A stretch of 64,000 bases of DNA from Roseburia sp. Its GTDB lineage: Bacteria; Bacteroidota; Bacteroidia; Bacteroidales; Bacteroidaceae. Every line of letters starts with the position of its first letter. The stretch's first letter is position 1. The notes beneath the pieces were generated by a model, which did not search any database, had not been told where the DNA came from, and worked only from the letters and a program-made list of their open reading frames with translations. The position numbers and the translations under genes were made by a program. The DNA lies in contig JAMPEL010000004.1 in the NCBI GenBank assembly GCA_023665185.1, positions 10,489 through 74,488 of the forward strand, given 5' to 3'. Below, in pieces: positions 7,583 to 56,966 of the stretch.

Positions 7583-9454
7583 CTAATCTACCTTTGCCGT
7601 TCTGAATAAATGAGTAAAACCTCCATCATAAAGTTTGCTCAGTCCGCTACGATTGTCAATAGCCTCACCAACGACAATCATTGTGGTCATGTCGAGCGAG
7701 TTTCCTTCCACAATAGACACAAGTTCACTAAGTTTGCCACGGTAAATACGCTGTTCCTTCCAAGTGAGCTTATAACATGCCGCCACAGGAGTTTCAGGAG
7801 GATAGCATTCCAATAACTCCGCCTGCACCTGACGGACAATTCCGGCACTGAGGAAGATACACATTGTAGACTGTGAGCGCGCAAGCAAATGCAGTTTTTC
7901 CTTTTCCGGCATAGGCGTACGACCCTCACCACGTGTGAGAATAATAGTCTGCACTCTTTCAGGAATCGTAAACTGGGAGCGAAGTTCAGCCGCAGCAGCC
8001 TGAAAAGAGGATATGCCCGGTGTGATATGATAGCTCATTCCATATTTGTCAAAGAAGTTCATCTGTTCTTGAATGGCTCCATATATACATGGGTCACCAG
8101 TATGCAAACGCACCACAAGCAGCCCTTTATCATAAAAGCTCTTCATCAGTTCAAACTGTTCTTCCAGATTCATAGAGGCTGACGAACGCACTACCGCCCC
8201 CTGCTTTGCACAATATGTCAGCTCGCGAGGCACCAAACTTCCGGCATACAGAATGAGGTCGGCACGTTCAAGAAACTTTCTGCCTCTCACACTGACCAGT
8301 TCAGGATCACCGGGACCTGCCCCTACAATTTCTATATGCCCGCCTTGCTTGCGCTCGGAAGAAACTGCAAGCGCATAAGTATAATGTGAAGTGGCGTCCA
8401 GACGGCACACTCCTTTATGTTTCTCAATCACAAGACGCGAGTCGGAAGCTCCCGCCAGAGCGGCTGCTTCGGCAACCCCGTATGTTCCGGTCGTCTGAAA
8501 AACTTTTTCAGAAGGATTCGGAACTTCCATTTCATTCAGTCTGTCGGCTGTGTAAATGCACAAACGGGCAGCCTTGCAGAATTGAAGAAGCTCAGGCAAC
8601 ACAGGCTCGTCTTTCTTCAATTCAATAGTACCAATCGTGGAGATTGATTCTGGTGCGTATCCTGCCATTGTCACTTCTTCTATAATCTGAATCGCCGTCT
8701 CTTTTGGTGTCAGCCTCTGACATCCTATGCCAAGATGCAAGACTGGCGGGAAAAATTGTAGATATGAAATATTCTCAACCTCATAAATACGAGGAGAGAC
8801 AAGTATCAGAAGAGCAAAATCTTCCTTTCCTTCAAGATGTTGCTCATTACGGACAGCACAAAATTCCTCATAACTGAAAAAGACATCAACATGTTCAGGC
8901 TTGGAATCCAACATCATATCCGTACCGGCAACCTTACATTCCACCACCAAAGCTGTCTTGCGTCCGCCAACAAACAGGGAAATCGCATCATTCATCTGTT
9001 TGTGAGAAGCCGTAACTTGCCAACCATAATCACGCGCCAAAGTATCAAGTGCCCACAAACCATGGTTGTCACTCTGTGTGGTAATGACAGCTTCTCCACC
9101 TGTCACAGAAGCAATAAACCGGGCAAGCTGATTTGCTCCGCCTACATGTCCAGACAATACGGGAATGACATAATGTCCGGTACTGTCCACACATACAACA
9201 GCCGGATCCTCGTATTTGTCATTCACCAAACCGGAGATACTTCTGACACATATCCCCATAGCGCAAATAAAGACCAAAGCGTCCACCTTTCCAAACAGTT
9301 CTTTTGCTGTATCGGATACGGAAGTGATTCTCTCACAACCTTCAATCTCGCCCTTATAATATAATGTCACGTCCGACTTGCCTGCCTCGCTTTTTATCGC
9401 TTTTGCCACCGCCAATGATGATGGCGACACAAGTATTATCGCTATCTTTTTCAT
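7583..9454 (-). CDS. cbiG/cbiF: Fused cobalt-precorrin-5A hydrolase (CbiG) and precorrin-4 C11-methyltransferase (CbiF/CobM)
   Basis: N-terminal CbiG-like region. C-terminal tetrapyrrole methylase motif VGAGPGDPELVSVRG ... LILYAGSLVP is typical of CbiF. Confidence 0.75.
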   Translation of the reverse strand: MKKIAIILVSPSSLAVAKAIKSEAGKSDVTLYYKGEIEGCERITSVSDTAKELFGKVDALVFICAMGICVRSISGLVNDKYEDPAVVCVDSTGHYVIPVLSGHVGGANQLARFIASVTGGEAVITTQSDNHGLWALDTLARDYGWQVTASHKQMNDAISLFVGGRKTALVVECKVAGTDMMLDSKPEHVDVFFSYEEFCAVRNEQHLEGKEDFALLILVSPRIYEVENISYLQFFPPVLHLGIGCQRLTPKETAIQIIEEVTMAGYAPESISTIGTIELKKDEPVLPELLQFCKAARLCIYTADRLNEMEVPNPSEKVFQTTGTYGVAEAAALAGASDSRLVIEKHKGVCRLDATSHYTYALAVSSERKQGGHIEIVGAGPGDPELVSVRGRKFLERADLILYAGSLVPRELTYCAKQGAVVRSSASMNLEEQFELMKSFYDKGLLVVRLHTGDPCIYGAIQEQMNFFDKYGMSYHITPGISSFQAAAAELRSQFTIPERVQTIILTRGEGRTPMPEKEKLHLLARSQSTMCIFLSAGIVRQVQAELLECYPPETPVAACYKLTWKEQRIYRGKLSELVSIVEGNSLDMTTMIVVGEAIDNRSGLSKLYDGGFTHLFRTAKVD

Positions 9455-9473
9455 ACATTCATGTTTTATGCGG

Positions 9474-9481
9474 CAAAAGTA
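9474..9481 (-). promoter_or_regulatory. Putative -7 box (TACTTTTG) upstream of cbiG/cbiF
   Basis: Minus-strand TACTTTTG sits 20 nt upstream of ATG 9454. Confidence 0.4.
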
Positions 9482-9751
9482 CTGAAAAAGTAGCTAACTA
9501 CATCACTTTTGATGTTTTTGTGTTCTTTGGGTCGGTGTTCTTTCTCAAACTTTTCACATTCGGCAGATGTACAGACATAAGTTTTGTGGATAGCACCATT
9601 CAGTTTCACCACACTAAAGTCTAAAATCAACAATGCTGATTTAAAAAATCCGCTCTCCATTCCAATTTTGACATTGCAGACTAAAAAGAACTTTAAGCAA
9701 AAGTTATATGCACTATATAACAGATATTATCATCTGAAATGTCAGACGGAC

Positions 9752-9785
9752 AAAAAAAAGAGTGAAGCTGTCAAAACTTCACTCC
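9752..9785 (-). terminator. Rho-independent terminator after rubredoxin
   Basis: Minus strand reads GAGTGAAG-loop-CTTCACTC followed by TTTTTTTT. Confidence 0.6.
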
Positions 9786-9822
9786 TTTCTCTTAGATTAT
9801 TAATATTCAATCCTGAAAAAAA

Positions 9823-9987
9823 TCAATCTTCAACTTCTGAAAATTCATCTTTGCCTACAGCACACAAAGGACATTCAAAATCTTCAGGAAGGTCCTCAAA
9901 TGCTGTTCCAGGTTCGATACCTGCTTCTGGTACACCTACAGCCGGGTCGTAAACCCAACCGCATACATCACAAACATACTTTTTCAT
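9823..9987 (-). CDS. Rubredoxin (54 aa, below the ORF-track size cutoff)
   Basis: Hand translation of the minus strand gives [54 protein letters not shown]. It has both CxxCG and CPxCG knuckles. It lies directly upstream of cbiG/cbiF and downstream of rubrerythrin. Confidence 0.9.
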
Positions 9988-10023
9988 AATAAAATCATTT
10001 TATAGTGTAAACAATAAATATAT

Positions 10024-45470: not shown

Positions 45471-47189
45471 TCACAAACTGCCTCTGATGTCTTCTATTTG
45501 CAATTGCACCTCGCCGCGTTTGTAACTGTTCTCCTCTACGGTGTACACAATGTCAAACGAGCTTTTTGTCTTTATATACCTCACTTGAGAACTTTGTCCG
45601 AAAGCAATGCCGTTCATCACATTGTTCGATTTGTTGTCCACAAGCTCAAGCTTGATGTGCTCCTGCTCACGTCCTACCACCTTGCTGGTTCCATAATCAT
45701 AAACCTGTTTCGTACAGAACATCGGATTGTGATTGTCGGGACCGAAAGGACGCATCCGCTTCAAGTCGGCATGGAACTTATGCGTAATGTCACGGAAATT
45801 GATTACCGCGTCAATATACAAATTGGCACTGGTCTGCTCCGGCTTTATCGTCTCTGTCACATACTTCTCAAAGCGTTGCTTGAACAACTCCACGTTCTCC
45901 ACTTTCAGCGAAAGTCCTGCGGCATACGTATGACCACCAAAATTCTCAAGCAAGTCGCGGCACTGCTGTATTCCCTTATACACGTCAAAACCGCTCACAC
46001 TGCGGGCAGATCCGGTCACCATGTCTCCTGTACGTGTAAGGACAACCGCCGGACGATGATACATCTCCGTCAGACGCGACGCGACAATCCCGATGACACC
46101 CTTATGCCAATCTTCATTATAAATGACTATGGCATCGTGTTCCGAGAGTTCCGGCATCTTTTCCACAATAGCACTCGCTTCTTCGGTCATCTGCTTGTCA
46201 AGCTCCTTTCGCTCCTCGTTATACTTGTTTATCTGCAACGCCCTCTCACGCGCACGGTTATAGTCATGCTCCACAAGCAGTGCCACCGATTCCTTGCCGT
46301 TCTGAATGCGTCCGGACGAATTGATTCGCGGACCAATCTTGAACACAATGTCGCTCATCGTGATGTCCTTACCCTGAAGTCCGCATATATCGACCACGGC
46401 TTTCAGACCCACACTCGGATTGTTGTTTAGCTGGCGCAAACCGTGATAGGCAAGAATACGGTTCTCTCCCATCACCGGCACAATGTCGGAGGCTATGCTC
46501 ACCGCCACCAAATCGAGCAAGGGAATAAGCGAGCTGAAGCTGATGCCATTGCTTATGGCAAAGGCCTGCATAAACTTAAAACCTACTCCACAGCCCGACA
46601 AATGCCGGTATGGGTAGGTGGCGTCACTACGCTTGGCATTGAGTATAGCTACAGCAGGAGGCATCTGCTCATCTGGCACATGATGGTCGCAGATAATGAA
46701 GTCTATGCCTTTCTGCCTTGCATATGCAATCTCATCTACAGCCTTTATGCCGCAATCAAGCACAATAATGAGCTTCACTCCTGTTTCGTGCGCATAATCC
46801 ACACCTCTCACCGACACACCATATCCCTCCTCATAGCGGTCAGGAATATAGTAGTCGATATTTGAATAGAATTGTTGCAGGAATCTGTACACCAATGCCA
46901 CAGCCGTACATCCGTCCACATCATAGTCACCATACACAAGGATTCTTTCCTTTCTGCCCATTGCCATGTTTAGCCGTTCCACGGCCTTGTCCATATCGCG
47001 CATCAGAAAAGGGTCATGCAGTTCATGTAACTGGGGACGGAAGAATTTCTTCAGCTCCGCAGCATCAGAGATTCCTCTCCGGATAAGCATACCGCATAGT
47101 ATAGGACTTACCCCGGTTGCTTCCGACAATTTTTCAGCCGCATCCTTCTGTTCTTGTGTGGGTGTTTCTAAATTCCATTTGTAATTCAT
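45471..47189 (-). CDS. recJ: Single-stranded-DNA-specific exonuclease RecJ
   Basis: DHH motifs (GDYDVDG, DHH at ICDHH) and a DHHA1 GGH motif. Confidence 0.9.
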   Translation of the reverse strand: MNYKWNLETPTQEQKDAAEKLSEATGVSPILCGMLIRRGISDAAELKKFFRPQLHELHDPFLMRDMDKAVERLNMAMGRKERILVYGDYDVDGCTAVALVYRFLQQFYSNIDYYIPDRYEEGYGVSVRGVDYAHETGVKLIIVLDCGIKAVDEIAYARQKGIDFIICDHHVPDEQMPPAVAILNAKRSDATYPYRHLSGCGVGFKFMQAFAISNGISFSSLIPLLDLVAVSIASDIVPVMGENRILAYHGLRQLNNNPSVGLKAVVDICGLQGKDITMSDIVFKIGPRINSSGRIQNGKESVALLVEHDYNRARERALQINKYNEERKELDKQMTEEASAIVEKMPELSEHDAIVIYNEDWHKGVIGIVASRLTEMYHRPAVVLTRTGDMVTGSARSVSGFDVYKGIQQCRDLLENFGGHTYAAGLSLKVENVELFKQRFEKYVTETIKPEQTSANLYIDAVINFRDITHKFHADLKRMRPFGPDNHNPMFCTKQVYDYGTSKVVGREQEHIKLELVDNKSNNVMNGIAFGQSSQVRYIKTKSSFDIVYTVEENSYKRGEVQLQIEDIRGSL

Positions 47190-47748
47190 TATATATGTTC
47201 TTATTTTACTTACTTCTCATTAATGGTCTGGTGCAATGGAAAACGTGTCAAGCCATATACTATTGGTTACATCCACATCATTTTTATCGTTCAAGAACAA
47301 TAAACAGATGACTATGAACACACTGCTGTCCGCCATGCATAATTCCACATACCGGAAAACGCGCAACACACCATTATAGTTTGTAAAGGTAGAAAAAAAG
47401 AGCTTACGGTATATTTAGCTCCGCGTTAATTTTATAAAAAAACTTATTTTACGGAGTCAATAAATGCCTGAAAGCATGAATAATACTCCAGTTAATGCTT
47501 ATGATTTATACAACATTTTTCGCTCCAATCAGGATGTGCCCATATAGGAATATCTGTCATCTCAATTGAATTGCGATGTATTTGCTGAATAGTTACAAAG
47601 TTCCTCAAATTCCATCTTGATCATAAAATTAAAGATTATAATCGCTGTGCAACTTTGCATAACGCAAAATTACAACCAGATTACAATTTCCCAAAGGTGT
47701 ACTTCAATAAGTGCTTACACTTCAGTTAATGTTTACGTTAATGTTTAC

Positions 47749-47796
47749 CACTCACAAAAATAGCCGCCCATTTATGGACGGCTATTTTTGTGAGTG
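47749..47796 (-). terminator. Long perfect hairpin downstream of the island operon (possible terminator or boundary)
   Basis: 18-bp perfect stem cactcacaaaaatagccg / cggctatttttgtgagtg with a 12-nt loop. There is no clean external U-run, so its function is uncertain. Confidence 0.45.
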
Positions 47797-47851
47797 CCAA
47801 CCTGCTATTGCGGACGGTTATACGAATGTAATCGATGTCAGGGATTTGTTA

Positions 47852-48193
47852 TTATATAGTTCTATCAAAATCCTTTTTGATACCCGCAAAATTACGAACA
47901 ATGTCGTAAATCATCACTTCATTGGCATCGATATTTTCATCAACAACTATCATGTTTGCCATAAGATCTGCGAAATATTCCTTTTGTTCTTCGTCAAACA
48001 TTTTGACTTGCGCTAATGCCATTAGTGAATTTTTGTCATCTACATCTTTGCGAGAATCATCTTGCATCTGAAACTTTTCTTTCAACTGATTGAAATAAAA
48101 CATTTCTCGGGCATCAATACGACCATCAGCTTGGATAATATCCAATAAGATGCGCATTATTGCTATTTTTTGCTGATAATTAAATGTATTCAT
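47852..48193 (-). CDS. TerB-like small protein (island gene 4)
   Basis: Two TerB-type helical pairs: ILLDIIQADGRIDAREMFYF and LMANMIVVDENIDANEVMIY. The start is 5 nt after the upstream stop. Confidence 0.65.
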   Translation of the reverse strand: MNTFNYQQKIAIMRILLDIIQADGRIDAREMFYFNQLKEKFQMQDDSRKDVDDKNSLMALAQVKMFDEEQKEYFADLMANMIVVDENIDANEVMIYDIVRNFAGIKKDFDRTI

Positions 48194-48198
48194 ATATG

Positions 48199-49452
48199 TT
48201 ACTTCTTTTTGTTCTTAGCCATACGTTTCTTTTCCATCTCTGGATCAAATCCGTATAAAGCGATGACGTCTTTTACATTTTTGTCAAACTTTCTCACAGT
48301 TTCATATCCAAGAGATAATTTCTTCTCATAATCTTCGTTGTCATAGACAGGACAAACATCAGCTTTCCCCTTACCCTTCTGCTTTTTTCTCATCCACAAA
48401 ATAGGAAGTTTGCAGGCTGTAACATCATCTATGCCATCTTTTGGAGCTGATGGGGTAACAGTAACATTCTTCTTAAAGAATGCCAAGTCTGCAGCTTCAT
48501 AGAATGCGTCGTAAGTCTTATCATATCCTAAAGTAATACCAAGAAGATAAACTGCCACAGAACATTCAAAGCCTCCAATTGTCTTAGCATAAGAGATAAC
48601 TTTTTCGCTTGGCCTATGATCCATTCCATTAGAGAATTTATCCTTTAGGAATAAGAACAATGGCGCAGCTATTGCAAATTTACATCCTGAGACTCGCTCA
48701 GTCTGATGAGACAAAGGCGAAGCTTCTACTAATTTATAAAGAGACGCATACTGTGGATCTTTACATGATATAAGTTGCAGATAAATCTGAGTAGATTCTG
48801 CAACTTCACCATCAAGTTCTTGTTTCTTTAAGAAGTTACAGTACACGTGTATAAAATCGCAGAAAAATCCTATCATATTTTTGGGATAAAAGCTATGGCG
48901 CTCATATCTAAGTAAGTATGTCCAAATAGACAAATCACCAAAAGGACGTTCGTTCGCATATAACTGGCGGAACACTTCTTGGACTGATTCGGGAGTAATT
49001 ATTTCTTCACATTTCTCACGATCCTCCTCAGGCAAATCAAATATTAACCAAAGGTTGTCTATCCCGCGCATGCATTGTTTAATATATAAACTCTGTTGAA
49101 GTTTCTCAAATTTATCCACCCAAGGTGATACATGAAGCTGGATACGCGGATCAAAAGAAATCGACATTTCCTTTTTTGCTTCTTCATCAAAAGTATACAC
49201 ACCACGAACATTTCTAATATCTATCTCGATATATAAACCATTACATTCTTCTGCAATAAAATGAACTATCAAGTACTCAAAAGAGTACCCATACATATTT
49301 ATTCTTGAAGTGAGAGCATCAAATAGTTCTTCGTCATTTGCATGCTCTGATACTAATCCATCAAATGGTACAGCATAGCTAATACGGAACTGACCATATT
49401 TAAATAAGTCGACAAAATCTAACTTACGTATTATTGCTAAGTAATCTTTCAT
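48199..49452 (-). CDS. Orphan 417-aa protein (island gene 3), no recognisable motif
   Basis: Long AT-rich ORF. Start chosen at ATG 49452 because the junction TAATTATG repeats the junction of the preceding gene pair. An alternative ATG is at 49467. Lys-rich C-terminus. Confidence 0.6.
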   Translation of the reverse strand: MKDYLAIIRKLDFVDLFKYGQFRISYAVPFDGLVSEHANDEELFDALTSRINMYGYSFEYLIVHFIAEECNGLYIEIDIRNVRGVYTFDEEAKKEMSISFDPRIQLHVSPWVDKFEKLQQSLYIKQCMRGIDNLWLIFDLPEEDREKCEEIITPESVQEVFRQLYANERPFGDLSIWTYLLRYERHSFYPKNMIGFFCDFIHVYCNFLKKQELDGEVAESTQIYLQLISCKDPQYASLYKLVEASPLSHQTERVSGCKFAIAAPLFLFLKDKFSNGMDHRPSEKVISYAKTIGGFECSVAVYLLGITLGYDKTYDAFYEAADLAFFKKNVTVTPSAPKDGIDDVTACKLPILWMRKKQKGKGKADVCPVYDNEDYEKKLSLGYETVRKFDKNVKDVIALYGFDPEMEKKRMAKNKKK

Positions 49453-49454
49453 AA

Positions 49455-50639
49455 TTAGAAGCCCCAAGTACTATTACCTCCAAATGATGGAGTTTGTATT
49501 GTTGAAGAAATATCTATCTGAGAGCAATTTGATTTGAATGCGTCTAGATAATCGCTAGGACAACCATTATAGGTGATATAGAGATTCTTACGAGTTCGGG
49601 TCATTGCAACCATAAACAAAGTCTTAGCCAATGAATCATTAGGGCTAATATACATGCTTGCATTCGCATATGGTATAAATACGTTTTCAAAGTCAAGACT
49701 TTTGGCACTATGAAATGTCATGATAATGATTCGATGATCATTTTCATCAAAGCTACCATATCCATTACCTATATATTGCATTTTTATACCATTTCTGCGC
49801 AAATGAGAGTTCATTGCACCAAAATCAATTCTTCCCCAGTTGTTTGTTGTTTCAACCCATTCCGGCTTGCCAGCATCACTAAGCGCTTGATTCACGAATT
49901 TAATAATCTTTTGAGCTGTAGGTATAAGAACTGCTGTTGAATCTCCAACATTCACTGCTTTAGTTGCTTGTTCCATTATATATTTTACCTCTTTTGCTTC
50001 AGAAGGTGCGGTACAAAGACGTATTTGCGTATCATCCTTGGTCATATCCCTCTTTGAAGAAAAAATATTCATTCGAGGTAAGAAACGTTGAACAGCATCA
50101 ATAATAGAGCGTGATAATCTATGAATGATGCCCAATTCATAAGGTTCGCCATTAATTAGACGTCCTATTTGCGATGGTGTAACTGTTGCTTCTCTCCAAC
50201 GAGGATCGCTATCATAGATAGATTGATTAGAGTCTCCTGCTACAATTATATTTGAACCGCGAGCATTCATTTCGCAAATAACACGTGGTATCAAATCTTG
50301 TACCTCATCACAAAGAATATAATCATAGTTAGAGCTACCCTTCATAAAACCGTAATACGTATCAATTGTTACTTTCGAATCAAGGCCTAGCTCCTTAAAG
50401 TCTGCCTTAAACATTTCTACAAGTGATTTTGTAAATACAACAACCAAAATACTGGAATCGGGGTTCTTCGCAAGGATTGTCTTTGCTGCATACGCAAGCA
50501 AGACGGACTTTCCAGAACCAGCAAATCCTTGAATCCATTGGTTGCGAAAACTTGTACTATAATTGTTAACAAATGCGCTGACTTTGTCAAGAAAGGCCTG
50601 CTGTTGTGGGTCTAACCTGTTAATTGGAGGAATGTGCAT
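49455..50639 (-). CDS. Compact SF1 (UvrD/Rep-like) helicase-family ATPase (island gene 2)
   Basis: Motif I GFAGSGKS, II CDEVQD, III VAGDSNQSIY, V FHSAKSLDFENVF, VI VAMTRTRKNLYI. Confidence 0.75.
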   Translation of the reverse strand: MHIPPINRLDPQQQAFLDKVSAFVNNYSTSFRNQWIQGFAGSGKSVLLAYAAKTILAKNPDSSILVVVFTKSLVEMFKADFKELGLDSKVTIDTYYGFMKGSSNYDYILCDEVQDLIPRVICEMNARGSNIIVAGDSNQSIYDSDPRWREATVTPSQIGRLINGEPYELGIIHRLSRSIIDAVQRFLPRMNIFSSKRDMTKDDTQIRLCTAPSEAKEVKYIMEQATKAVNVGDSTAVLIPTAQKIIKFVNQALSDAGKPEWVETTNNWGRIDFGAMNSHLRRNGIKMQYIGNGYGSFDENDHRIIIMTFHSAKSLDFENVFIPYANASMYISPNDSLAKTLFMVAMTRTRKNLYITYNGCPSDYLDAFKSNCSQIDISSTIQTPSFGGNSTWGF

Positions 50640-50641
50640 AA

Positions 50642-53050
50642 TTAATATTTTGTTGTTAGCATATTTGTTTTTGTTTTAGATAGATTTTCTGAGTCGTAAT
50701 AAGTATCTCCTTGTGGTCCCGGTGTCGACATACGAATTTCTTTTGCAAAAAGCTTTTCGCCAAGTTCTTCTGCAACACTAGCAAACCAGCCATAAGCATA
50801 ATTAGGCAAAGAATTAGTTTTCCACTGACGAAGATACATGTCATATACTTTCTGAAATTTTTCTTTTGCCCCTGTTTGGTCACCTTCTGACTTTTGAATT
50901 CTACCAAGTTCAATTAGTGCAATATCATGCTCTGGATCCACAGAAATGGCTCTTTGCAAATACTCTTTTGCTCGCTTTGGATCACGGAATCTTAAGGTTG
51001 AACCTAAGTTGGCATTAGCATACTTATGATTAGGATTCTCCTCCAATGCTTTCTCATAGAACTCAATCGCCTTATCTGTCGCTCCTGCGTTATTGTAGAG
51101 CACAGCAATCCCATTATACATATCAGCTTCTGGATATAATTCATTTTGCAGTTCATATGTTTCAGCAGCTTTAAATGTGTGGCCGGCTTTATCATATGCT
51201 CTACGAAGAGCGATAAGCGTTTGTTTTGATGGGATTCCACCATTTAACTCTGCCTCTAGATTAGCTTGCCTTTCTGCTTTTAGTGCGACTCTGTCCTCGG
51301 TACTAAGCTCTTTGTTTGCAAATGGGCTTAGAGGTTCTACATGACATATAACACCCATACATGTAGCTCGCACTATTAACATTTTGTCTGTGTTAACTTC
51401 TATAGCAAGCTCAATAGGACAATTGATAGGGAATCCACGTGGTAAGGTTGATTCTATTTTTATGTTGAACAATAATTTTCTTACATCACCAACACATATA
51501 GGCAACTCTACAACTTTTTGACCATCACGGCTTGTAACCAAATCGTCAATAATAATAGTGTCACAAGGAATTTGTGTTCCTGCAGGTAGAATCACTTTTG
51601 GCCGCTCATCCTTCGTAATAATTAGGATTGGCTCGCTTGAAATCGGTTGGATCAAACACTTATTCATTCCGTTAAACAACAGACTATGTATTGCAGCTCC
51701 TTGCGAAACATGAGTTTGCAGATTAGAAGGAACTAACATTTCAGAATCCTCAAAGTATTTTTTCAATTCTTCTTGAATATAAGGGCTTTGAGCACTTCCA
51801 CCAATAAAGAGAATGTAATCTATTTCCTCTTTCGCAACTTTAGATTTTTTAATGGCACTTTCAATAGGTGAGTAAATGCTGTTATATTCATCCTCACCCT
51901 TAATGCGAGTTGTTTTACTATAACCATTTTTCAAGAAAATGCTTATAGTATCAGTCATTTCCTTATAGGTTAAGTAAAAAGCACTTTGTCTTAACTCGCC
52001 CTTGTTTGTGTAAACGACAACTTCTGATTCTACTGTAGCCTTCATATCACTGTTTTTTACAATAGGCATAACAAATTCAGATGTAAGCATAGCAAGAGAC
52101 TTGTTTATCATTATTTTAAGACGCTCAGCTACTTTATACAATGCGGAAGCTATATACTTCTTTTCATTTGTGCGGAATTGTTCCATTTGCTTGCCATTTG
52201 CTTGCAAAAAGCGAGGCATTAGATAATGGTAAGTTATGTACCGATCAATATCATCACCGCCAAGTTTTGTAAACTTTGATATGGCTATATTTTTTGAGAA
52301 GAAGCCATTCGCACTTTGACCAATTTCCAAAATGGATATATCACATGTTCCACCACCGAAATCAAAAACTAAAACCTTTGAGTTGTAGTCTGGATTTACA
52401 AACATAGGTTGTCCATCTGTCGCACGATAAACTGCATAACTAATGAAAGCCGCATTAGGCTCGTCAATTAAAGCTTGCTTAGAGATTTTCATGTCATTAG
52501 CCATTAACGCATCCAATAAATCCTTACGCTGATTTGCTTCGAAAGATGCAGGAATACTAACTGCATACGATATATCCTTGCTCAATTTATTCTCTTGGCA
52601 ATAGCCTATAATCAAATACTTTAGATATGCGAAAAAGACTCGTGCAGCATCTTTGGGGTTGCGAATATAAAAAGGGGCTGTATTGCGAAGCTCACTTTCA
52701 TAATACTTTGCTCCCAAATCTTCACCAAGTTCCATTTTGAATGAGTACCATATATTTTTTCCTCTTTTAAGGTGATATTTGAGTTGAGACGCTCCTTCTC
52801 CTACAAGAATTTGCTCGTTATTCCACGCTATTACGGATGGAACAATTTCCGAAGAATAAAGAGTTCCGTCAGGTAACTTTTGTTTTAGACGTAATGAATC
52901 CGTGTGAATCAAACAGCCATCTTCATCGTACGATGCTACAGAGACAACAGATGTTGATGTTCCAAAATCAATACCCACATAGGTTTTGCATCGCAGTATT
53001 GCATTATTTCTTACTGCTGGCAAAAAAGATGAAATAGTAATTTTATTCAT
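50642..53050 (-). CDS. Hsp70-family ATPase fused to C-terminal TPR repeats (island gene 1)
   Basis: Start moved to ATG 53050, because the ORF-track start 53257 overlaps the upstream gene. GIDFGTSTS, VFDFGGGTCDIS, ILFIGGSAQSP, then a beta-rich region and three to four TPR-like repeats. Confidence 0.75.
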   Translation of the reverse strand: MNKITISSFLPAVRNNAILRCKTYVGIDFGTSTSVVSVASYDEDGCLIHTDSLRLKQKLPDGTLYSSEIVPSVIAWNNEQILVGEGASQLKYHLKRGKNIWYSFKMELGEDLGAKYYESELRNTAPFYIRNPKDAARVFFAYLKYLIIGYCQENKLSKDISYAVSIPASFEANQRKDLLDALMANDMKISKQALIDEPNAAFISYAVYRATDGQPMFVNPDYNSKVLVFDFGGGTCDISILEIGQSANGFFSKNIAISKFTKLGGDDIDRYITYHYLMPRFLQANGKQMEQFRTNEKKYIASALYKVAERLKIMINKSLAMLTSEFVMPIVKNSDMKATVESEVVVYTNKGELRQSAFYLTYKEMTDTISIFLKNGYSKTTRIKGEDEYNSIYSPIESAIKKSKVAKEEIDYILFIGGSAQSPYIQEELKKYFEDSEMLVPSNLQTHVSQGAAIHSLLFNGMNKCLIQPISSEPILIITKDERPKVILPAGTQIPCDTIIIDDLVTSRDGQKVVELPICVGDVRKLLFNIKIESTLPRGFPINCPIELAIEVNTDKMLIVRATCMGVICHVEPLSPFANKELSTEDRVALKAERQANLEAELNGGIPSKQTLIALRRAYDKAGHTFKAAETYELQNELYPEADMYNGIAVLYNNAGATDKAIEFYEKALEENPNHKYANANLGSTLRFRDPKRAKEYLQRAISVDPEHDIALIELGRIQKSEGDQTGAKEKFQKVYDMYLRQWKTNSLPNYAYGWFASVAEELGEKLFAKEIRMSTPGPQGDTYYDSENLSKTKTNMLTTKY

Positions 53051-53118
53051 GTGTACTAATTGTTTGGTTGTTATTGAATATCCCGTATTTACAACTACAT
53101 TTTTAGGAGTTGCGAAGT

Positions 53119-54606
53119 TTACTCCGAGCCTCCATCTTGAAATTGTGGCTTGATTACTTTCCAATGGCCGCCGAAGTCCGGGCCAATCCTTTGTAGCAGT
53201 CCTTTTTCTCGCAGACCATCTACAATTCGTCTTGTAGCTTTTACCGAAAGACTGCATTCCTCGGCTAATTGTGAAACGCTGATACGAGGATTATCCTTTA
53301 TTAGGTCCAAAATTAGGTCTTGCCCCTGTCTTGCCCCTGTCTTGCCCCTGTCTTGCCCTTCTTCTTGTTTCTTGCTAAATTCCGTACCAGTCCCCCGTCT
53401 TAGGATAGTGGTTTCAGCATCTTTATCTTCTGCAACAGACGTGGCAAATACTGTGGCTTTCATGATGAACGCCACAACATTGTACAAAGGCTCACGAGTA
53501 CCCATAGCTATGAGTTCACGGCACATACGATCAACACCCTCACCAAACTCCTTTACATAATCGTAGGCTTTGAGGTATTCAGCAATCTTAGGATTGCGAG
53601 AGAAGTGGGTATGGCGGATATTGTCAGTGCGAACGATGCCAGGCAGTTTGCCGGGAGTCTCGAACACAATGCGGTCATCAAACATCTTTATTTGGATTTC
53701 CGTTCCTTTGATGCTGTAGTCACGGTGACAAACCGAATTGACCACCATCTCCTGTATCACAAACTTCGGATATTCACGGTCGGTACGGAAGATGCCATTC
53801 TCGCCAAGATAGGAATGTTCCTTTACTTGGGTTTCAAGGTATTCGATAGCCTTTTTTATCTGGTCGAGGATGCGCCCCTCAAAGGTTATGTCCTTGATAA
53901 CGTTCATTTCACGACCGACCTTCTCTTCCGTACCAGCATAGCGGATAAAACGCACACGGGCACGAGGGAAAAAACGCTGGGGATACCTGCCAAAGAGCAG
54001 AATGCAAGCAGTGCTTACCTGCGGAGCATCATTCTTGTAGGTTACAAAGTCCTTGTTCTCAGTGAGATATTCAATGGCGGACTTACCATAGCCGATGCGG
54101 TTCATGTAAGCCTTGACCATATCCATATCAACATCTTCGAGCGTGGCATCGTAAGCTGGACTGTCCTCAAAATAGCGTTCGCCTTTGTCGTACATCAGTC
54201 GGAGACGTTCCTCAAAAGAGAGTTTACGCGACTTGTCGCCTACCCTCCAAAATACCTCATCGGCTTGGTTGGCATGAAGACGTGGACTGGCCGGAACGTT
54301 GATGATTAGAATATGGTTGTCGTTGCCATAGTCGTCAACGCATGGAACAAGGTCGGTATTAACGGTTATACTCGGTACACAAAAATCAAGCGGTGTACGA
54401 AGAATCTCATTGAGATGTGCCGTATCTTGGTCCACTCCTTCAATGCGTCGAGTCTTATCAGAGATACCCACTGCAATCATACCCCCATCGGCATTGGCCA
54501 TAGCCACGATGGTGGTGGCAAGAGCTTTCGGATCTATGTGAATGCTTTTGCAATCAAAGGTCTGCCCTTCGGGCTTCAGACAGAGTTCTTCTATGGTGTA
54601 TCTCAT
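53119..54606 (-). CDS. AlbA_2 (Schlafen-like divergent AAA) / HATPase_c_4-like / C-terminal winged-HTH protein (COG2865-type)
   Basis: N-terminus EGQTFDCKS...AMANADGGMIAVGISD. Central NSVCHRDY...FETPG region. C-terminal wHTH ISVSQLAEECSLSVKATRRIVDGLREKGLL. ATG 54606 preferred over TTG 54633. Confidence 0.75.
   Translation of the reverse strand: MRYTIEELCLKPEGQTFDCKSIHIDPKALATTIVAMANADGGMIAVGISDKTRRIEGVDQDTAHLNEILRTPLDFCVPSITVNTDLVPCVDDYGNDNHILIINVPASPRLHANQADEVFWRVGDKSRKLSFEERLRLMYDKGERYFEDSPAYDATLEDVDMDMVKAYMNRIGYGKSAIEYLTENKDFVTYKNDAPQVSTACILLFGRYPQRFFPRARVRFIRYAGTEEKVGREMNVIKDITFEGRILDQIKKAIEYLETQVKEHSYLGENGIFRTDREYPKFVIQEMVVNSVCHRDYSIKGTEIQIKMFDDRIVFETPGKLPGIVRTDNIRHTHFSRNPKIAEYLKAYDYVKEFGEGVDRMCRELIAMGTREPLYNVVAFIMKATVFATSVAEDKDAETTILRRGTGTEFSKKQEEGQDRGKTGARQGQDLILDLIKDNPRISVSQLAEECSLSVKATRRIVDGLREKGLLQRIGPDFGGHWKVIKPQFQDGGSE
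53318..53361. repeat. 11-bp tandem repeat (gtcttgcccct x3 plus one imperfect copy) inside the AlbA_2-family gene
   Basis: Read directly. It is translated in all three frames as GQDRGKTGARQGQD in the linker before the wHTH. Confidence 0.85.
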
Positions 54607-54611
54607 TGTGG

Positions 54612-54824
54612 TTATTTCCGCTTGGTGTGGCAAATCAACTCGTGAATATCAATGTTTAGCAACTCGGCAATTCGAGCCAATGTATAAAGGTCGGGCTGCG
54701 CGCAATTAGTGCATCACTTGGATACCGTTGCAGGGTCTTTCTGCAAAAACTTTGCAAGCCATTTACTCATTATACCTCGTTCTGCCAGCACTGCTTTGAT
54801 ATGATTCAATTCTGCCAGCCTTAT
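54612..54824 (-). pseudogene. XRE-type HTH regulator remnant with an in-frame TGA and no ATG start
   Basis: Minus-strand frame reads IRLAELNHIKAVLAERGIMSKWLAKFLQKDPATVSK*CTNCAQPDLYTLARIAELLNIDIHELI. The TGA at 54714-54716 sits where XRE proteins have Trp (VSKW). The first codon is ATA. The stop lies 5 nt before the AlbA_2 ATG. Confidence 0.5.
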
Positions 54825-54843
54825 ATAAATTATGGGTTCACCA

Positions 54844-54851
54844 CAAATTTA
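54844..54851 (-). promoter_or_regulatory. Putative -7 box (TAAATTTG) upstream of the XRE remnant / AlbA_2 gene
   Basis: Minus-strand TAnnTTTG match sits 20 nt upstream of position 54824. Confidence 0.4.
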
Positions 54852-55028
54852 TGGCATTTTCTTGAGAAATCCTCATGATTGGGTGGAAAACTGTGAAAAC
54901 GGCAGCAAATTCGCCTCCTCCACACATTCATTATGTCCCTTGTCCACACTTTACATATAATGGAAATATCTTAAAACCCGAATCATTCCTCCGTCCATAT
55001 CGCAGAACAGCTGTATGCGGACAAAAGC

Positions 55029-55652
55029 ATTTTGACATTTTGTCACTTGAAAAGAGAACTCGATTTTAACATTTCGGGCGGTTTGGGATCTTGATTTTTG
55101 GAGCGATTTTTGAGACAACACACATAAATCGTTGATAATCAAACAGTTCCTATTTTGTAAAAAAGTCGCAGTTTTTGATCAAAAACGCATGGGTTTGATC
55201 AAAATAGGGAGTATTGATAATCAGAGAGTTATGAAAATCCGCCGTTAAAATCGCCATTTTTCGGCTTCAAAATCAATCTTTGTTTTTCGGGGTGTGGGAA
55301 AACGATATGTGAAAAGAAATTAAGGATTGTCCGGAAAGATACTCGATTTTAGCCCAAAATGCGGACTGAAAAAATTTCTTTCACCTTGAAAAAAAATTTG
55401 CAAGGTGAAACGCAAAAAATCGGTGCGCCTTACAAAAAAATTTTCAGCACCTTGCAATTTTGGACTTTTGGGCGGTTTGGGGCGGAAAAAGCATGTTTTG
55501 GGATTGATTTATTTTATCTTTTAAAATATAAATTACCTTATTTTTACATTTGAATTTCAAGTTTTGAAAACCGCCGTAGAATCGCTCAAATGCAGCCGAG
55601 GAAAGGTGCAGTCGATTTTGAGCGATTCTACGGGCATCGGGTTTTAACATTT
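55029..55652 (+). repeat. Copy C of the ~0.6 kb dispersed noncoding repeat family
   Basis: Same ordered blocks as copies A and B. TTTTAACAT occurs at 55064 and 55642. Terminal hairpin ccgtagaatcgctcaaa / tttgagcgattctacgg. A shared left-flank unit lies at about 54958-55027. Confidence 0.75.
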
Positions 55653-56121
55653 CAAATTGTCAGACATTTAGCACTTTTCCAAAGAAAATTCAGGAATTTA
55701 GTTGTTTTTTGTGTACACACCGCAACTTGCGACAGCAAACGGATGCTTATTAGTGCGGCATCACTTTTTCAAAGCCCAACGAAGCTGCTCGGCCATGAAC
55801 AGTCGGCTGTCCTTGCCCCACCAGCGTGTCGCCATCATTTTACACCGCAGTTGCCCGGCACGCCCAAGTCATGCAGAAACGGCTAATCACTATATATCAG
55901 TACCATGTTTGCCGACATAAAATTATCAGAGTGGCTTATCAGACTCAACCAAATCGCCATCCATCAGACGAGCGTATTGAAAAAAATGGCGATAACGACC
56001 GAAAGTTACTGAAATAAGTATTTAGAAAGGAAACATGGCAATAACCCCGGTATTCCGACATGCCCGTATGCACTTCCAGTTACTTTTTATAATATAACTC
56101 GCATTCTTCAGAAAAAAGACG

Positions 56122-56159: not shown

Positions 56160-56966
56160 ATGTTACAATTTATAAGTTTTGGAAGTGGAAGTTGTGGAAA
56201 CTGCTACTGTCTTAGCGATGGGAGCTGTTCTATTCTTATTGACGCGGGCATAAGCACCAGACGGCTGAAACGCTATTTTCGCGACTACGGTGTGAATCAG
56301 TCAGCAATATGCGCGCTCATTGTCACACACGACCATGCAGACCATATAAAAGCTGCCGGAAAGGTAAGCGGTGAATTAAAAATACCGGTATATGCCACAA
56401 AACTTGTACATGAGGGGATAAACCGCAATTTCCATGTACGAAACAAGATAGAGGAAACTTATGCACGGACGATTGAGAAGAACGAGACTTTTGAAATCGG
56501 GCAGTTCAAGATTACCCCATTCGAGATTCCGCACGACTCGATGGAGAATGTGGGATATTCCATCGAGCATGAGGGAGAGATTTTCACTATCATGACAGAC
56601 GTGGGGGCACCGACTAACAATGTGAAGCATTACATCTCAATAAGCAACCACCTCGTCATCGAGGCAAATTATGACATGGAGATGCTGGTGAACGGGAAAT
56701 ATCCTCTCCATCTAAAACAAAGGATTATGAGCGGAACGGGGCATCTGTCGAACAGACAGACAGCCGAGGCACTGGCGGAAAACTTCCATGCCGGATTGCG
56801 GAATGTATGGCTGTGCCACCTGAGCGAGGAGAACAACCATCCGGAACTGGCGAGGAAAACAATAGAGCAATATTTACGCTCGTATGGAATCATTGCCGAC
56901 ACCGACTTCACACTGGAGGTGTTGCGCAGAAAGATTCCGACAGGACCTTTCAACATCAGCGAATAA
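56160..56966 (+). CDS. MBL-fold metallo-hydrolase
   Basis: VTHDHADH motif plus downstream His/Asp ligands. Confidence 0.8.
   Translation: MLQFISFGSGSCGNCYCLSDGSCSILIDAGISTRRLKRYFRDYGVNQSAICALIVTHDHADHIKAAGKVSGELKIPVYATKLVHEGINRNFHVRNKIEETYARTIEKNETFEIGQFKITPFEIPHDSMENVGYSIEHEGEIFTIMTDVGAPTNNVKHYISISNHLVIEANYDMEMLVNGKYPLHLKQRIMSGTGHLSNRQTAEALAENFHAGLRNVWLCHLSEENNHPELARKTIEQYLRSYGIIADTDFTLEVLRRKIPTGPFNISE

Follow-up and report, generated by a model that had tools for sequence, protein, structure and literature searches.

Immune roles for Hsp70 in bacteria have so far only been predicted, for degenerate Hsp70-like domains in CoCoNuT systems and in GTPase-centric systems. The locus described here is a four-gene cassette on the minus strand, at positions 47852 to 53050 of a 64,000-nucleotide (nt) stretch of DNA (the window) from contig JAMPEL010000004.1 of Roseburia sp., a genome placed by GTDB in the Bacteroidaceae (Bacteroidales). 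It encodes an Hsp70 paralogue with tetratricopeptide repeats (TPR), a superfamily 1 (SF1) helicase, a fast-evolving protein of unrecognised fold and a TerB-like protein. On balance it probably serves in defence against phages or mobile elements, as a system built from a core of three genes and a fourth gene that varies. The defence function rests on context and on shared modules, namely a UvrD-like helicase, the TerB of validated systems, and the Hsp70, alpha-repeats and SF1 helicase of predicted CoCoNuT type III. The four open reading frames (ORFs), and the domains of the first, are as follows.

50642 to 53050, minus strand: gene 1, an Hsp70 paralogue of 802 amino acids (aa) (Pfam HSP70 4.6e-32, TPR_1 3e-11)
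51665 to 52987, minus strand: Hsp70 nucleotide-binding domain (NBD) of gene 1, about aa 22-462, with an insertion relative to DnaK (alignment to Bacteroides DnaK)
51320 to 51640, minus strand: Hsp70 substrate-binding beta domain (SBD-beta) of gene 1, about aa 471-577, with the hydrophobic linker KCLIQPI ahead of the domain
50816 to 51229, minus strand: TPR array of gene 1, about aa 608-745, occupying the place of the helical lid of Hsp70 (several Pfam TPR families match)
49455 to 50639, minus strand: gene 2, a minimal UvrD/Rep-like SF1 helicase of 394 aa (core motifs and Pfam)
48199 to 49452, minus strand: gene 3, 417 aa, with an AlphaFold2 (AF2) model and no family match
47852 to 48193, minus strand: gene 4, a stand-alone TerB-like helical protein of 113 aa (Pfam TerB PF05099, fold match)

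The nearest described analogue is CoCoNuT type III, which is predicted to combine a McrBC-like GTPase module (CnuB/CnuC), an SF1 helicase (CnuH), an effector (CnuE) and CnuD, in which an Hsp70 NBD and substrate-binding domain (SBD) are joined to HEAT-like repeats (PMC11090510). The Walker-A-like motifs of CnuD are described as degenerate, and a helicase-effector pairing has been proposed for CnuH and the downstream CnuE (PMC11090510). Like that system, the cassette combines an SF1 helicase with an Hsp70 NBD/SBD that is fused to an array of alpha-helical repeats; a putative effector gene follows the helicase gene, and the context is mobile and defence-like. Unlike it, the four proteins have no Pfam match to a McrB-like GTPase, an AAA_5-type ATPase, McrC/DUF2357 or HEPN, the helicase matches UvrD/Rep-type and not UPF1-type models, the repeats are TPR and not HEAT, and gene 3 is without a recognisable effector architecture built on a winged helix-turn-helix (wHTH). 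The ATPase motifs of the cassette Hsp70 are fully conserved, in contrast to those of CnuD. Membership in CoCoNuT type III was rejected because CnuB, a McrB-like GTPase with an NxD motif, and CnuC, which define the type, are unmatched in the four proteins; the flanking genes in the window are an AlbA_2 gene and recJ.

With Gabija and Hachiman the cassette shares a UvrD-like SF1 helicase beside a partner protein, and the helicase gives partial matches to models of the Gabija helicase GajB. These matches span only the helicase core motifs, however, and at 394 aa the protein is much shorter than the GajB models, most of which have lengths of about 500-685. PADLOC finds no GajA/OLD nuclease in the cassette, and Gabija is without Hsp70 or TerB components; assignment to Gabija was discarded because no protein matches GajA. 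Assignment to Hachiman was likewise rejected, the cassette being without HamA/DUF1837. In Shango, TerB occurs with an ATPase and a superfamily 2 (SF2) helicase. TerB is found in the validated systems Shango (SngA), Bunzi (BnzA) and Dionysus (DinB), and ligand- or membrane-linked sensing has been proposed for their TerB domains (10.1101/2025.09.30.679545). In Dionysus a small stand-alone TerB-like protein is needed for defence, and its partners are a MAEBL/transmembrane protein and a pore-forming toxin (10.1101/2025.09.30.679545). The cassette resembles these three systems in holding a TerB-fold protein inside a multi-gene cassette, but its partner genes are unrelated to theirs and its TerB gene is optional. 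Identity with Shango itself (SngA/SngB/SngC) was excluded, as none of the PADLOC models, those for Shango and Bunzi among them, gives a match to gene 4 at E<=0.01, and no Shango model is among the best 25 of 34 helicase matches. Finally, GTPase-centric tubulin/HSP70 systems have been predicted, as have GAP1-N2 systems with HSP70/GrpE and DnaJ- or TPR-fused partners (PMC7159879). The cassette shares with them an Hsp70 paralogue in a predicted NTP-dependent conflict system, sometimes with TPR-bearing partners. Unlike them it has no GTPase, tubulin, GrpE, DnaJ or FNIII by Pfam, and those systems, found mainly in actinobacteria and firmicutes, are without its helicase and gene 3.

Among the models and candidate families (PDC) of PADLOC v2, none corresponds to the products of genes 1, 3 or 4, and a search of full-text literature found no description of this gene combination. 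An earlier note on this DNA, made from the sequence alone, had proposed a new Hsp70-centred conflict machine that matched no named system. Both PADLOC v2 and the literature bear out the lack of a match, but an Hsp70 paralogue in such a setting has precedents, in the conflict systems already predicted to contain one. We class the cassette among the multi-gene NTPase/helicase conflict cassettes, with one component of unrecognised fold.

Co-conservation defines a three-gene core. Protein look-ups and scans of genomes, viral collections and metagenomes gathered 122 loci; 119 of them come from outside the strain of the window and have a homologue of gene 3. The presence of each gene was counted where the contig permits. 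An SF1 helicase gene is directly upstream of gene 3 in 107/108 loci, and the Hsp70-TPR gene is present in 89/91. A TerB-like gene is present in only 42/103, so that the conserved unit is a three-gene core plus a variable fourth gene, and the expectation that all four genes would travel together holds for Hsp70-TPR, helicase and gene 3 and fails for TerB. The order Hsp70-helicase-gene 3 is kept at 23% gene 3 identity (L027), where the fourth gene encodes an unrelated 201-aa protein; another locus (L119) has no fourth gene, and in L121 a further gene, of 185 aa, separates the Hsp70 gene from the helicase gene. Neither the 201-aa gene of L027 nor the 158-aa gene after L119 is TerB-like, and the idea that TerB fills every fourth position was dropped. 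The optional TerB subunit offers a natural with/without comparison for the role of TerB in defence.

A scan of 185,579 species-representative genomes with gene 3 patterns found the family in only 11, and all of the reliable cases belong to the Bacteroidales. Three short contigs of metagenome-assembled genomes (MAGs) labelled Bifidobacteriaceae, Pseudobutyrivibrio and Desulfovibrio are most likely mis-binned, and a spread beyond Bacteroidota was not accepted. Under such out-of-phylum labels, L011 and L018 encode an Hsp70 81-82% identical to a Bacteroides protein, and L019 has only the gene 3 end and a TerB-like gene on its contig.

Divergent variants of the cassette were also seen. In L121 (1-19693, JGI 3300001598) and L122, a 593-aa gene 3 and a TerB gene lie among ParA, microbial PARG, DprA, HIRAN and NADAR/DarT-associated genes, a setting that resembles an ADP-ribosylation-centred conflict or anti-defence region. 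The most distant variant seen is L031 (2167-10372), in which Hsp70 and helicase are about 37% identical to those of the window and gene 3 consists only of its N-terminal module (331 aa); next come genes of 1258, 661, 266 and 177 aa in the same direction, with no Pfam match on record, and the locus may be a larger relative of the system. It had been taken for a 'TPR-only' cassette without Hsp70, which was withdrawn as the Hsp70-TPR gene is actually cut by the contig end.

The mechanical ORF for gene 1 reaches 53257, but the ATG at 53050 is the start used by database protein P0001 (802 aa, 100% identical to gene 1) and by all homologues. From the N terminus the protein has a conserved 21-aa extension, the NBD, an interdomain linker, SBD-beta, the TPR array and a conserved C-terminal tail. 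D28, K105, E197, D230, G232, G234, T235, D237 and G417-G418-S419, which make up the phosphate-1, catalytic Lys/Glu, phosphate-2 and adenosine motifs, are invariant in 11 family members and genuine Bacteroides DnaK. A phmmer search with aa 430-660 aligned them to yeast Ssb1 from NBD subdomain IIA through the linker to SBD-beta (chain residues 299-486, E 4.6e-9), and the DnaK SBD-beta aligns column for column with gene 1. Over residues 608-741, matches to consensus TPR proteins range from 1e-29 to 5e-70. With NCBIfam, whose equivalog cut-offs for DnaK, HscA and HscC are 620-1019 bits, the protein scores 81-108 bits at best, far too low for a canonical chaperone, and it is accordingly a paralogue and not DnaK. 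Its family has at least 120 clusters among the matches listed, full length and 57-90% identical, and one Hsp70 cluster has 3968 member sequences. Judged from these alignments, gene 1 is an Hsp70 that keeps an intact ATPase site and the peptide-binding beta domain, with a TPR platform replacing the lid. No J-domain or GrpE gene is linked to the cassette, as judged from a Pfam scan of the four proteins and from the annotated neighbours. The earlier note had likened the TerB protein to part of the DnaK co-chaperone DjlA; this analogy is weak because there is no J domain, none of the four proteins having a DnaJ match in Pfam.

Gene 2 has a full set of helicase core motifs without accessory domains. 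The translation contains Walker A GFAGSGKS (K44), motif II DEVQD (111-115), GDSNQSIY, TFHSAKSLDFENVF and VAMTRTRKNLYITY, and motifs III, V and VI are present. Pfam matches are to UvrD_C (6e-13), Viral_helicase1 (8e-11) and UvrD-helicase (7e-10), and AAA_19 also matches. PADLOC gives partial generic matches only (NERD+UvrD at 61 bits; best GajB at 50.6 bits, E 2.6e-14), the PHROG DNA helicase family matches at 1.5e-29, and no PDB sequence matches at 1e-3.

Gene 3 consists of a conserved N-terminal module (aa 1-328, alpha/beta plus helical), a disordered linker (aa 329-347) whose length is highly variable among homologues, and a small C-terminal alpha/beta domain (aa 348-417). The AF2 model is confident, with a predicted local distance difference test score (pLDDT) of 87.9 and a predicted template modelling score (pTM) of 0.72. 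The protein has no match in Pfam, NCBIfam, PADLOC or PHROGs, and Pfam is still empty at E<=1 over 27 members; a sequence profile against PDB is empty up to E 10, and Foldseek finds nothing at E<=0.001 in PDB or BFVD. Clustered at 50% identity, the family is represented 417 times among 1.84 billion proteins. Forty-nine residues are invariant, many of them charged, including E59, H64, E95, D101, R103, R182, E184, R185, H186 and K312. A PD-(D/E)xK nuclease, suggested by eye from the surroundings of E59, H64 and D101, was rejected because conservation is lacking at the candidate Asp of the 'IDI' strand. In 62/62 distinct cassettes conservation is lowest for gene 3, with a median identity to the window of 50%, against 77% for the Hsp70 and 69% for the helicase. 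As the quickest evolver of the cassette it may carry the signature of an arms race, which we count in favour of defence. With a confident model and no detectable relative, it is a promising place to look for new effector or sensor chemistry.

Gene 4 scores just above the Pfam cut-off for TerB (25.6 bits against 24.4), and many homologues have a precomputed PF05099 match. It contains two copies of an hhDG.ID..E signature, and both repeats are visible in 25 sequences. Its AF2 model (pLDDT 90.4) matches PDB entry 2H5N with a template modelling (TM) score of 0.78, a probability of 1.0 and 25% identity, and the family profile matches the same entry at E 4.6e-8. This entry is PG1108 of Porphyromonas gingivalis W83 (Bacteroidales), a structural-genomics protein of unknown function and the only solved relative of gene 4, which we take to be classed as TerB-like in SCOP/Pfam. 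No other Ter families (TerZ/A/C/D/E/F, TerY-P triads) were found in the cassette or among the annotated neighbours of the window and related loci, and a Ter (tellurite resistance) operon was ruled out for want of linked Ter genes. The protein assignments first made by reading the letters have thus stood up well, namely the Hsp70 with TPR repeats (Pfam, DnaK and Ssb1 alignments), the compact SF1 helicase with motifs I, II, III, V and VI (translation, Pfam), the orphan without a motif (family libraries, PDB and Foldseek all empty) and the TerB-like protein (Pfam, 2H5N fold).

The cassette is operon-like and compositionally foreign. The junction of genes 1 and 2 reads TAT TAA TT ATG CAC and that of genes 2 and 3 reads TTC TAA TT ATG AAA, each with a spacer of 2 nt, and genes 3 and 4 are joined as AAG TAA CATAT ATG AAT with a spacer of 5 nt; TAATTATG (stop-TT-start) therefore occurs at two of the three junctions. 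G+C is about 0.36 for the cassette, and 500-nt windows lie between 0.33 and 0.39 from about 47000 to 53250, compared with 0.45-0.52 in recJ/recQ and 0.47-0.48 in the upstream AlbA_2 gene. The upstream break falls at about 53000-53250, and downstream the low-G+C tract also spans 660 nt of non-coding DNA (47190-47851). The layout given in the earlier note (four minus-strand genes, spacers of 2, 2 and 5 nt, two identical junctions) agrees with the ORF calls and with the junctions as read, and the G+C profile upholds its claim of foreign composition with an upstream break near 53051-53118. The features that bound the operon are as follows.

47749 to 47796, minus strand: strong hairpin with a stem of 23 bp, a loop of 2 nt and T/A runs at its flanks, probably the intrinsic terminator of the operon, 56 nt past the gene 4 stop
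53051 to 53118, minus strand: gap of 68 nt between the stop of the AlbA_2 gene and the start of gene 1, with the upstream compositional boundary at or just beyond it

The arms of the hairpin at 47749-47796 form an inverted repeat with 96% complementarity, found both by repeat search and by reading the sequence, and the hairpin is the likely terminator of the operon. No sigma-70-like site was called inside the 68-nt gap, and the gap region is without nucleotide similarity to other loci.

The cassette is a horizontally mobile, accessory, self-contained module that is common in human-gut Bacteroidales; intact copies include those of P. vulgatus and of B. heparinolyticus DSM 23917 (L012). Its G+C is below that of the flanks in 66/70 loci, and it occurs in 42 distinct upstream and 25 distinct downstream contexts, so that relatives carry it at many unrelated sites. 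Some copies are flanked by housekeeping genes without a mobility gene nearby, such as recJ and, past AlbA_2, a metallo-beta-lactamase (MBL) gene in the window; others lie between gyrB and Sua5 or between TonB-receptor and beta-lactamase genes. In Prevotella its neighbours are the rpoA ribosomal operon on one side and, on the other, a polysaccharide utilisation locus that includes a fragment of a DDE transposase. A conjugative element carries it as cargo in Phocaeicola vulgatus-type assemblies, with the layout TraG, DUF4134, ParA, cassette, helix-turn-helix (HTH) gene, relaxase, NikA and integrase, and the TerB protein of this cassette is indexed in 2582 blocks of the contig collection. A conserved Mob relaxase gene lies directly downstream of the three-gene variant in 30 loci. 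The cassette is also on three IMG/VR contigs, one of which (L008) has an adjoining Mob relaxase and is thus read as a mobilisable element rather than a virus. A phage or plasmid origin was set aside, since gene 3 has no tblastn homologue in 50,697 phage or 72,556 plasmid records.

Such contexts raise the question of whether the cassette serves its carriers and not the host, by processing, replicating, establishing or protecting transferred DNA or by countering the defences of the recipient. Its position in P. vulgatus-type elements, between ParA/Tra genes and an HTH-relaxase-NikA-integrase block, agrees with such a service, as do the relaxase directly downstream in 30 loci and the ParA, PARG, DprA, HIRAN and NADAR/DarT-associated genes of L121, which are typical of establishment and anti-defence regions. 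We nevertheless consider it unlikely. There are housekeeping flanks and no mobility gene within 10 kb in the window, L022 and L119, a DDE transposase fragment is the sole mobility gene in L002, and no homologues were found on the 72,556 plasmids. The cassette also lies 3' of the relaxase gene, which, inferred from the usual relaxase and origin of transfer (oriT) layout, is not the usual leading side of oriT. Finally, element copies persist in which insertion sequence (IS) elements have broken the Hsp70 gene (L114, L116), so that the cassette is dispensable for the element. Defence of the host cell against phages or mobile elements is the reading that we prefer.

Decay of the cassette is recurrent, and gut metagenomes contain natural knock-outs of it. 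IS elements (DDE_Tnp_1, rve) split the Hsp70 gene into pieces of 432 and 340 aa in L114 (2040-7349) and L116 (3609-7349), the helicase gene is frameshifted in L035 and L036 (about 8815-9995), and deletions in L037 and L087 have removed the Hsp70 gene, or the Hsp70 and helicase genes, and left gene 3 and TerB. This is as expected of costly accessory genes and was counted for the defence reading. On an IMG/VR contig (L010, 2293-3321), an Hsp70-TPR homologue matches residues 1-343 only, although the contig runs on for 8 kb, and this copy too is probably disrupted.

Frequent decay would equally be expected of a selfish addiction module, or of a toxin-antitoxin module resembling abortive infection, in which gene 3 would be the toxin, restrained by Hsp70-TPR, the module would be kept through the harm that its loss does, and no specific sensing of phages would take place. 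A patchy, copy-like spread over many insertion sites, the low G+C and a spacing tight enough for translational coupling, which would fix stoichiometry, point the same way. Even so, we think this very improbable, because known addiction modules are far simpler than this 5.2-kb cassette with its two NTPases, no toxin fold is recognised, and L114 and L116 keep gene 3 intact beside a broken Hsp70 gene and are apparently viable, which argues against Hsp70 as an essential antitoxin. A host stress or quality-control machine without a part in genetic conflict, for example a chaperone-helicase pair resolving protein-nucleic-acid complexes under metal or envelope stress, would suit the intact Hsp70 ATPase site and peptide-binding domain and a TerB fold first described in tellurite and stress resistance operons, but has little chance of being right given that gene 3 patterns occur in only 11 of 185,579 species-representative genomes, that composition is foreign and insertion sites variable, that TerB is dispensable, and that no other Ter genes, J-domain protein or GrpE are linked.

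Genes near the cassette may reflect a defence or mobile-island lifestyle. A scan of the 203 nearest neighbour ORFs, drawn from the 42 upstream and 25 downstream context clusters, found AlbA_2/HATPase_c_4 (4), Fic-like (3), type I methyltransferase/HsdM (2), PDC-S02 (2), YhcG-PDDEXK (2) and ResIII (2) families, with one each of a type IV restriction enzyme, PDC-S34, PsyrT and cytosine methyltransferases. Directly upstream of the cassette in L027 is a type III restriction-modification pair. Transposases, relaxases, integrases and ordinary metabolic genes are also common among the neighbours, and the counts, which stand without a background rate, are suggestive.

Several points weigh against a defence system. 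No nuclease, toxin, pore or NADase domain is recognised in the four proteins, which makes the effector hypothetical, and the roles of Hsp70 as clamp or sensor and of TerB would be assigned by analogy. No PDC covers genes 1, 3 and 4, which means that earlier defence-island screens did not flag them, and most flanking genes are housekeeping or conjugation/mobilisation genes and not known defence genes.

In a defence role, the helicase and the gene 3 protein may form a nucleic-acid-tracking motor with a specificity or effector subunit, comparable to Gabija, Hachiman and CnuH-CnuE. The intact ATPase and peptide clamp of Hsp70-TPR suggest that it is probably an ATP-driven switch, for which two modes of action can be envisaged. 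In the first, Hsp70-TPR would clamp a segment of the effector and keep it inactive until triggered, and candidate clients are the disordered linker and the basic C-terminal domain of gene 3. In the second, SBD-beta and the TPR array would serve it to capture a protein of the invader, and this would license the helicase-effector pair. Where present, the TerB-like subunit might add a ligand-, metal- or membrane-linked input, as proposed for the TerB domains of Shango, Bunzi and Dionysus. More tentatively, and with a little less than even confidence, we suggest that an Hsp70 with an intact active site could be the central switch of an unrecognised class of prokaryotic immunity, widespread in human-gut Bacteroidales and on their conjugative elements, with a gene 3 fold absent from solved structures.

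The immediate surroundings of the cassette in the window differ on the two sides. The earlier note had placed it between recJ and an MBL hydrolase gene, which is correct on the recJ side; on the other, the AlbA_2 gene and 1.5 kb of non-coding DNA intervene. This upstream neighbour (53119-54633, minus strand) encodes 504 aa with AlbA_2 (Schlafen-type), HATPase_c_4 and wHTH domains, has a native-like G+C of 0.47, and matches a PADLOC pAgo-fusion model at 3e-37. A homologue, 73% identical, adjoins the cassette divergently in L008-type loci, and the 176 nt upstream of the gene (54642-54817) are 72% conserved between the window and that arrangement. The AlbA_2 gene is present in 4/42 upstream contexts, and it may therefore be a linked regulator or a separate defence gene. 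Within its C-terminal linker region, at 53317-53358, the 11-nt unit GTCTTGCCCCT is repeated in tandem (three overlapping 20-nt copies with a spacing of 11 nt), which could be a slippage-prone tract.

A second non-coding stretch of low G+C (0.37) lies between the AlbA_2 gene and the MBL hydrolase gene at 54750-55750. Several short inverted repeats lie in it, among them a perfect 17-bp pair at 55574-55590 and 55617-55633. It has no tRNA or Rfam match, and it may be the remnant of an earlier insertion. The MBL-fold hydrolase (56160-56966, plus strand) has a faint precomputed Pfam match to Anti-Pycsar_Apyc1 beside strong Lactamase_B matches, which probably reflects just the common MBL fold. The exact MBL protein is found only in same-strain assemblies, and the cassette is present in every one of those. 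The window has no flanking direct repeats or target-site duplication, tRNA or Rfam family that would mark an insertion, and at the nucleotide level the non-coding flanks resemble those of no other locus.

The cassette is a real and well-bounded finding that the catalogues compared here leave unexplained, and a role in defence is plausible. As far as we know, a defence system of this kind would be the first experimentally tractable one in which a catalytically intact Hsp70 is a core component of bacterial immunity, and its abundance in the gut, together with the intact Hsp70, makes the cassette a worthwhile experimental target. If an Hsp70 switch of this kind does lie at its centre, bacterial immunity would have recruited the Hsp70 peptide clamp to detect invader proteins or to gate a helicase-coupled effector. 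With the TerB protein of the P. vulgatus version in 2582 blocks of the contig collection and an Hsp70 cluster of 3968 members, the cassette could influence how susceptible a dominant lineage of the human gut is to phages and how genes flow within it.

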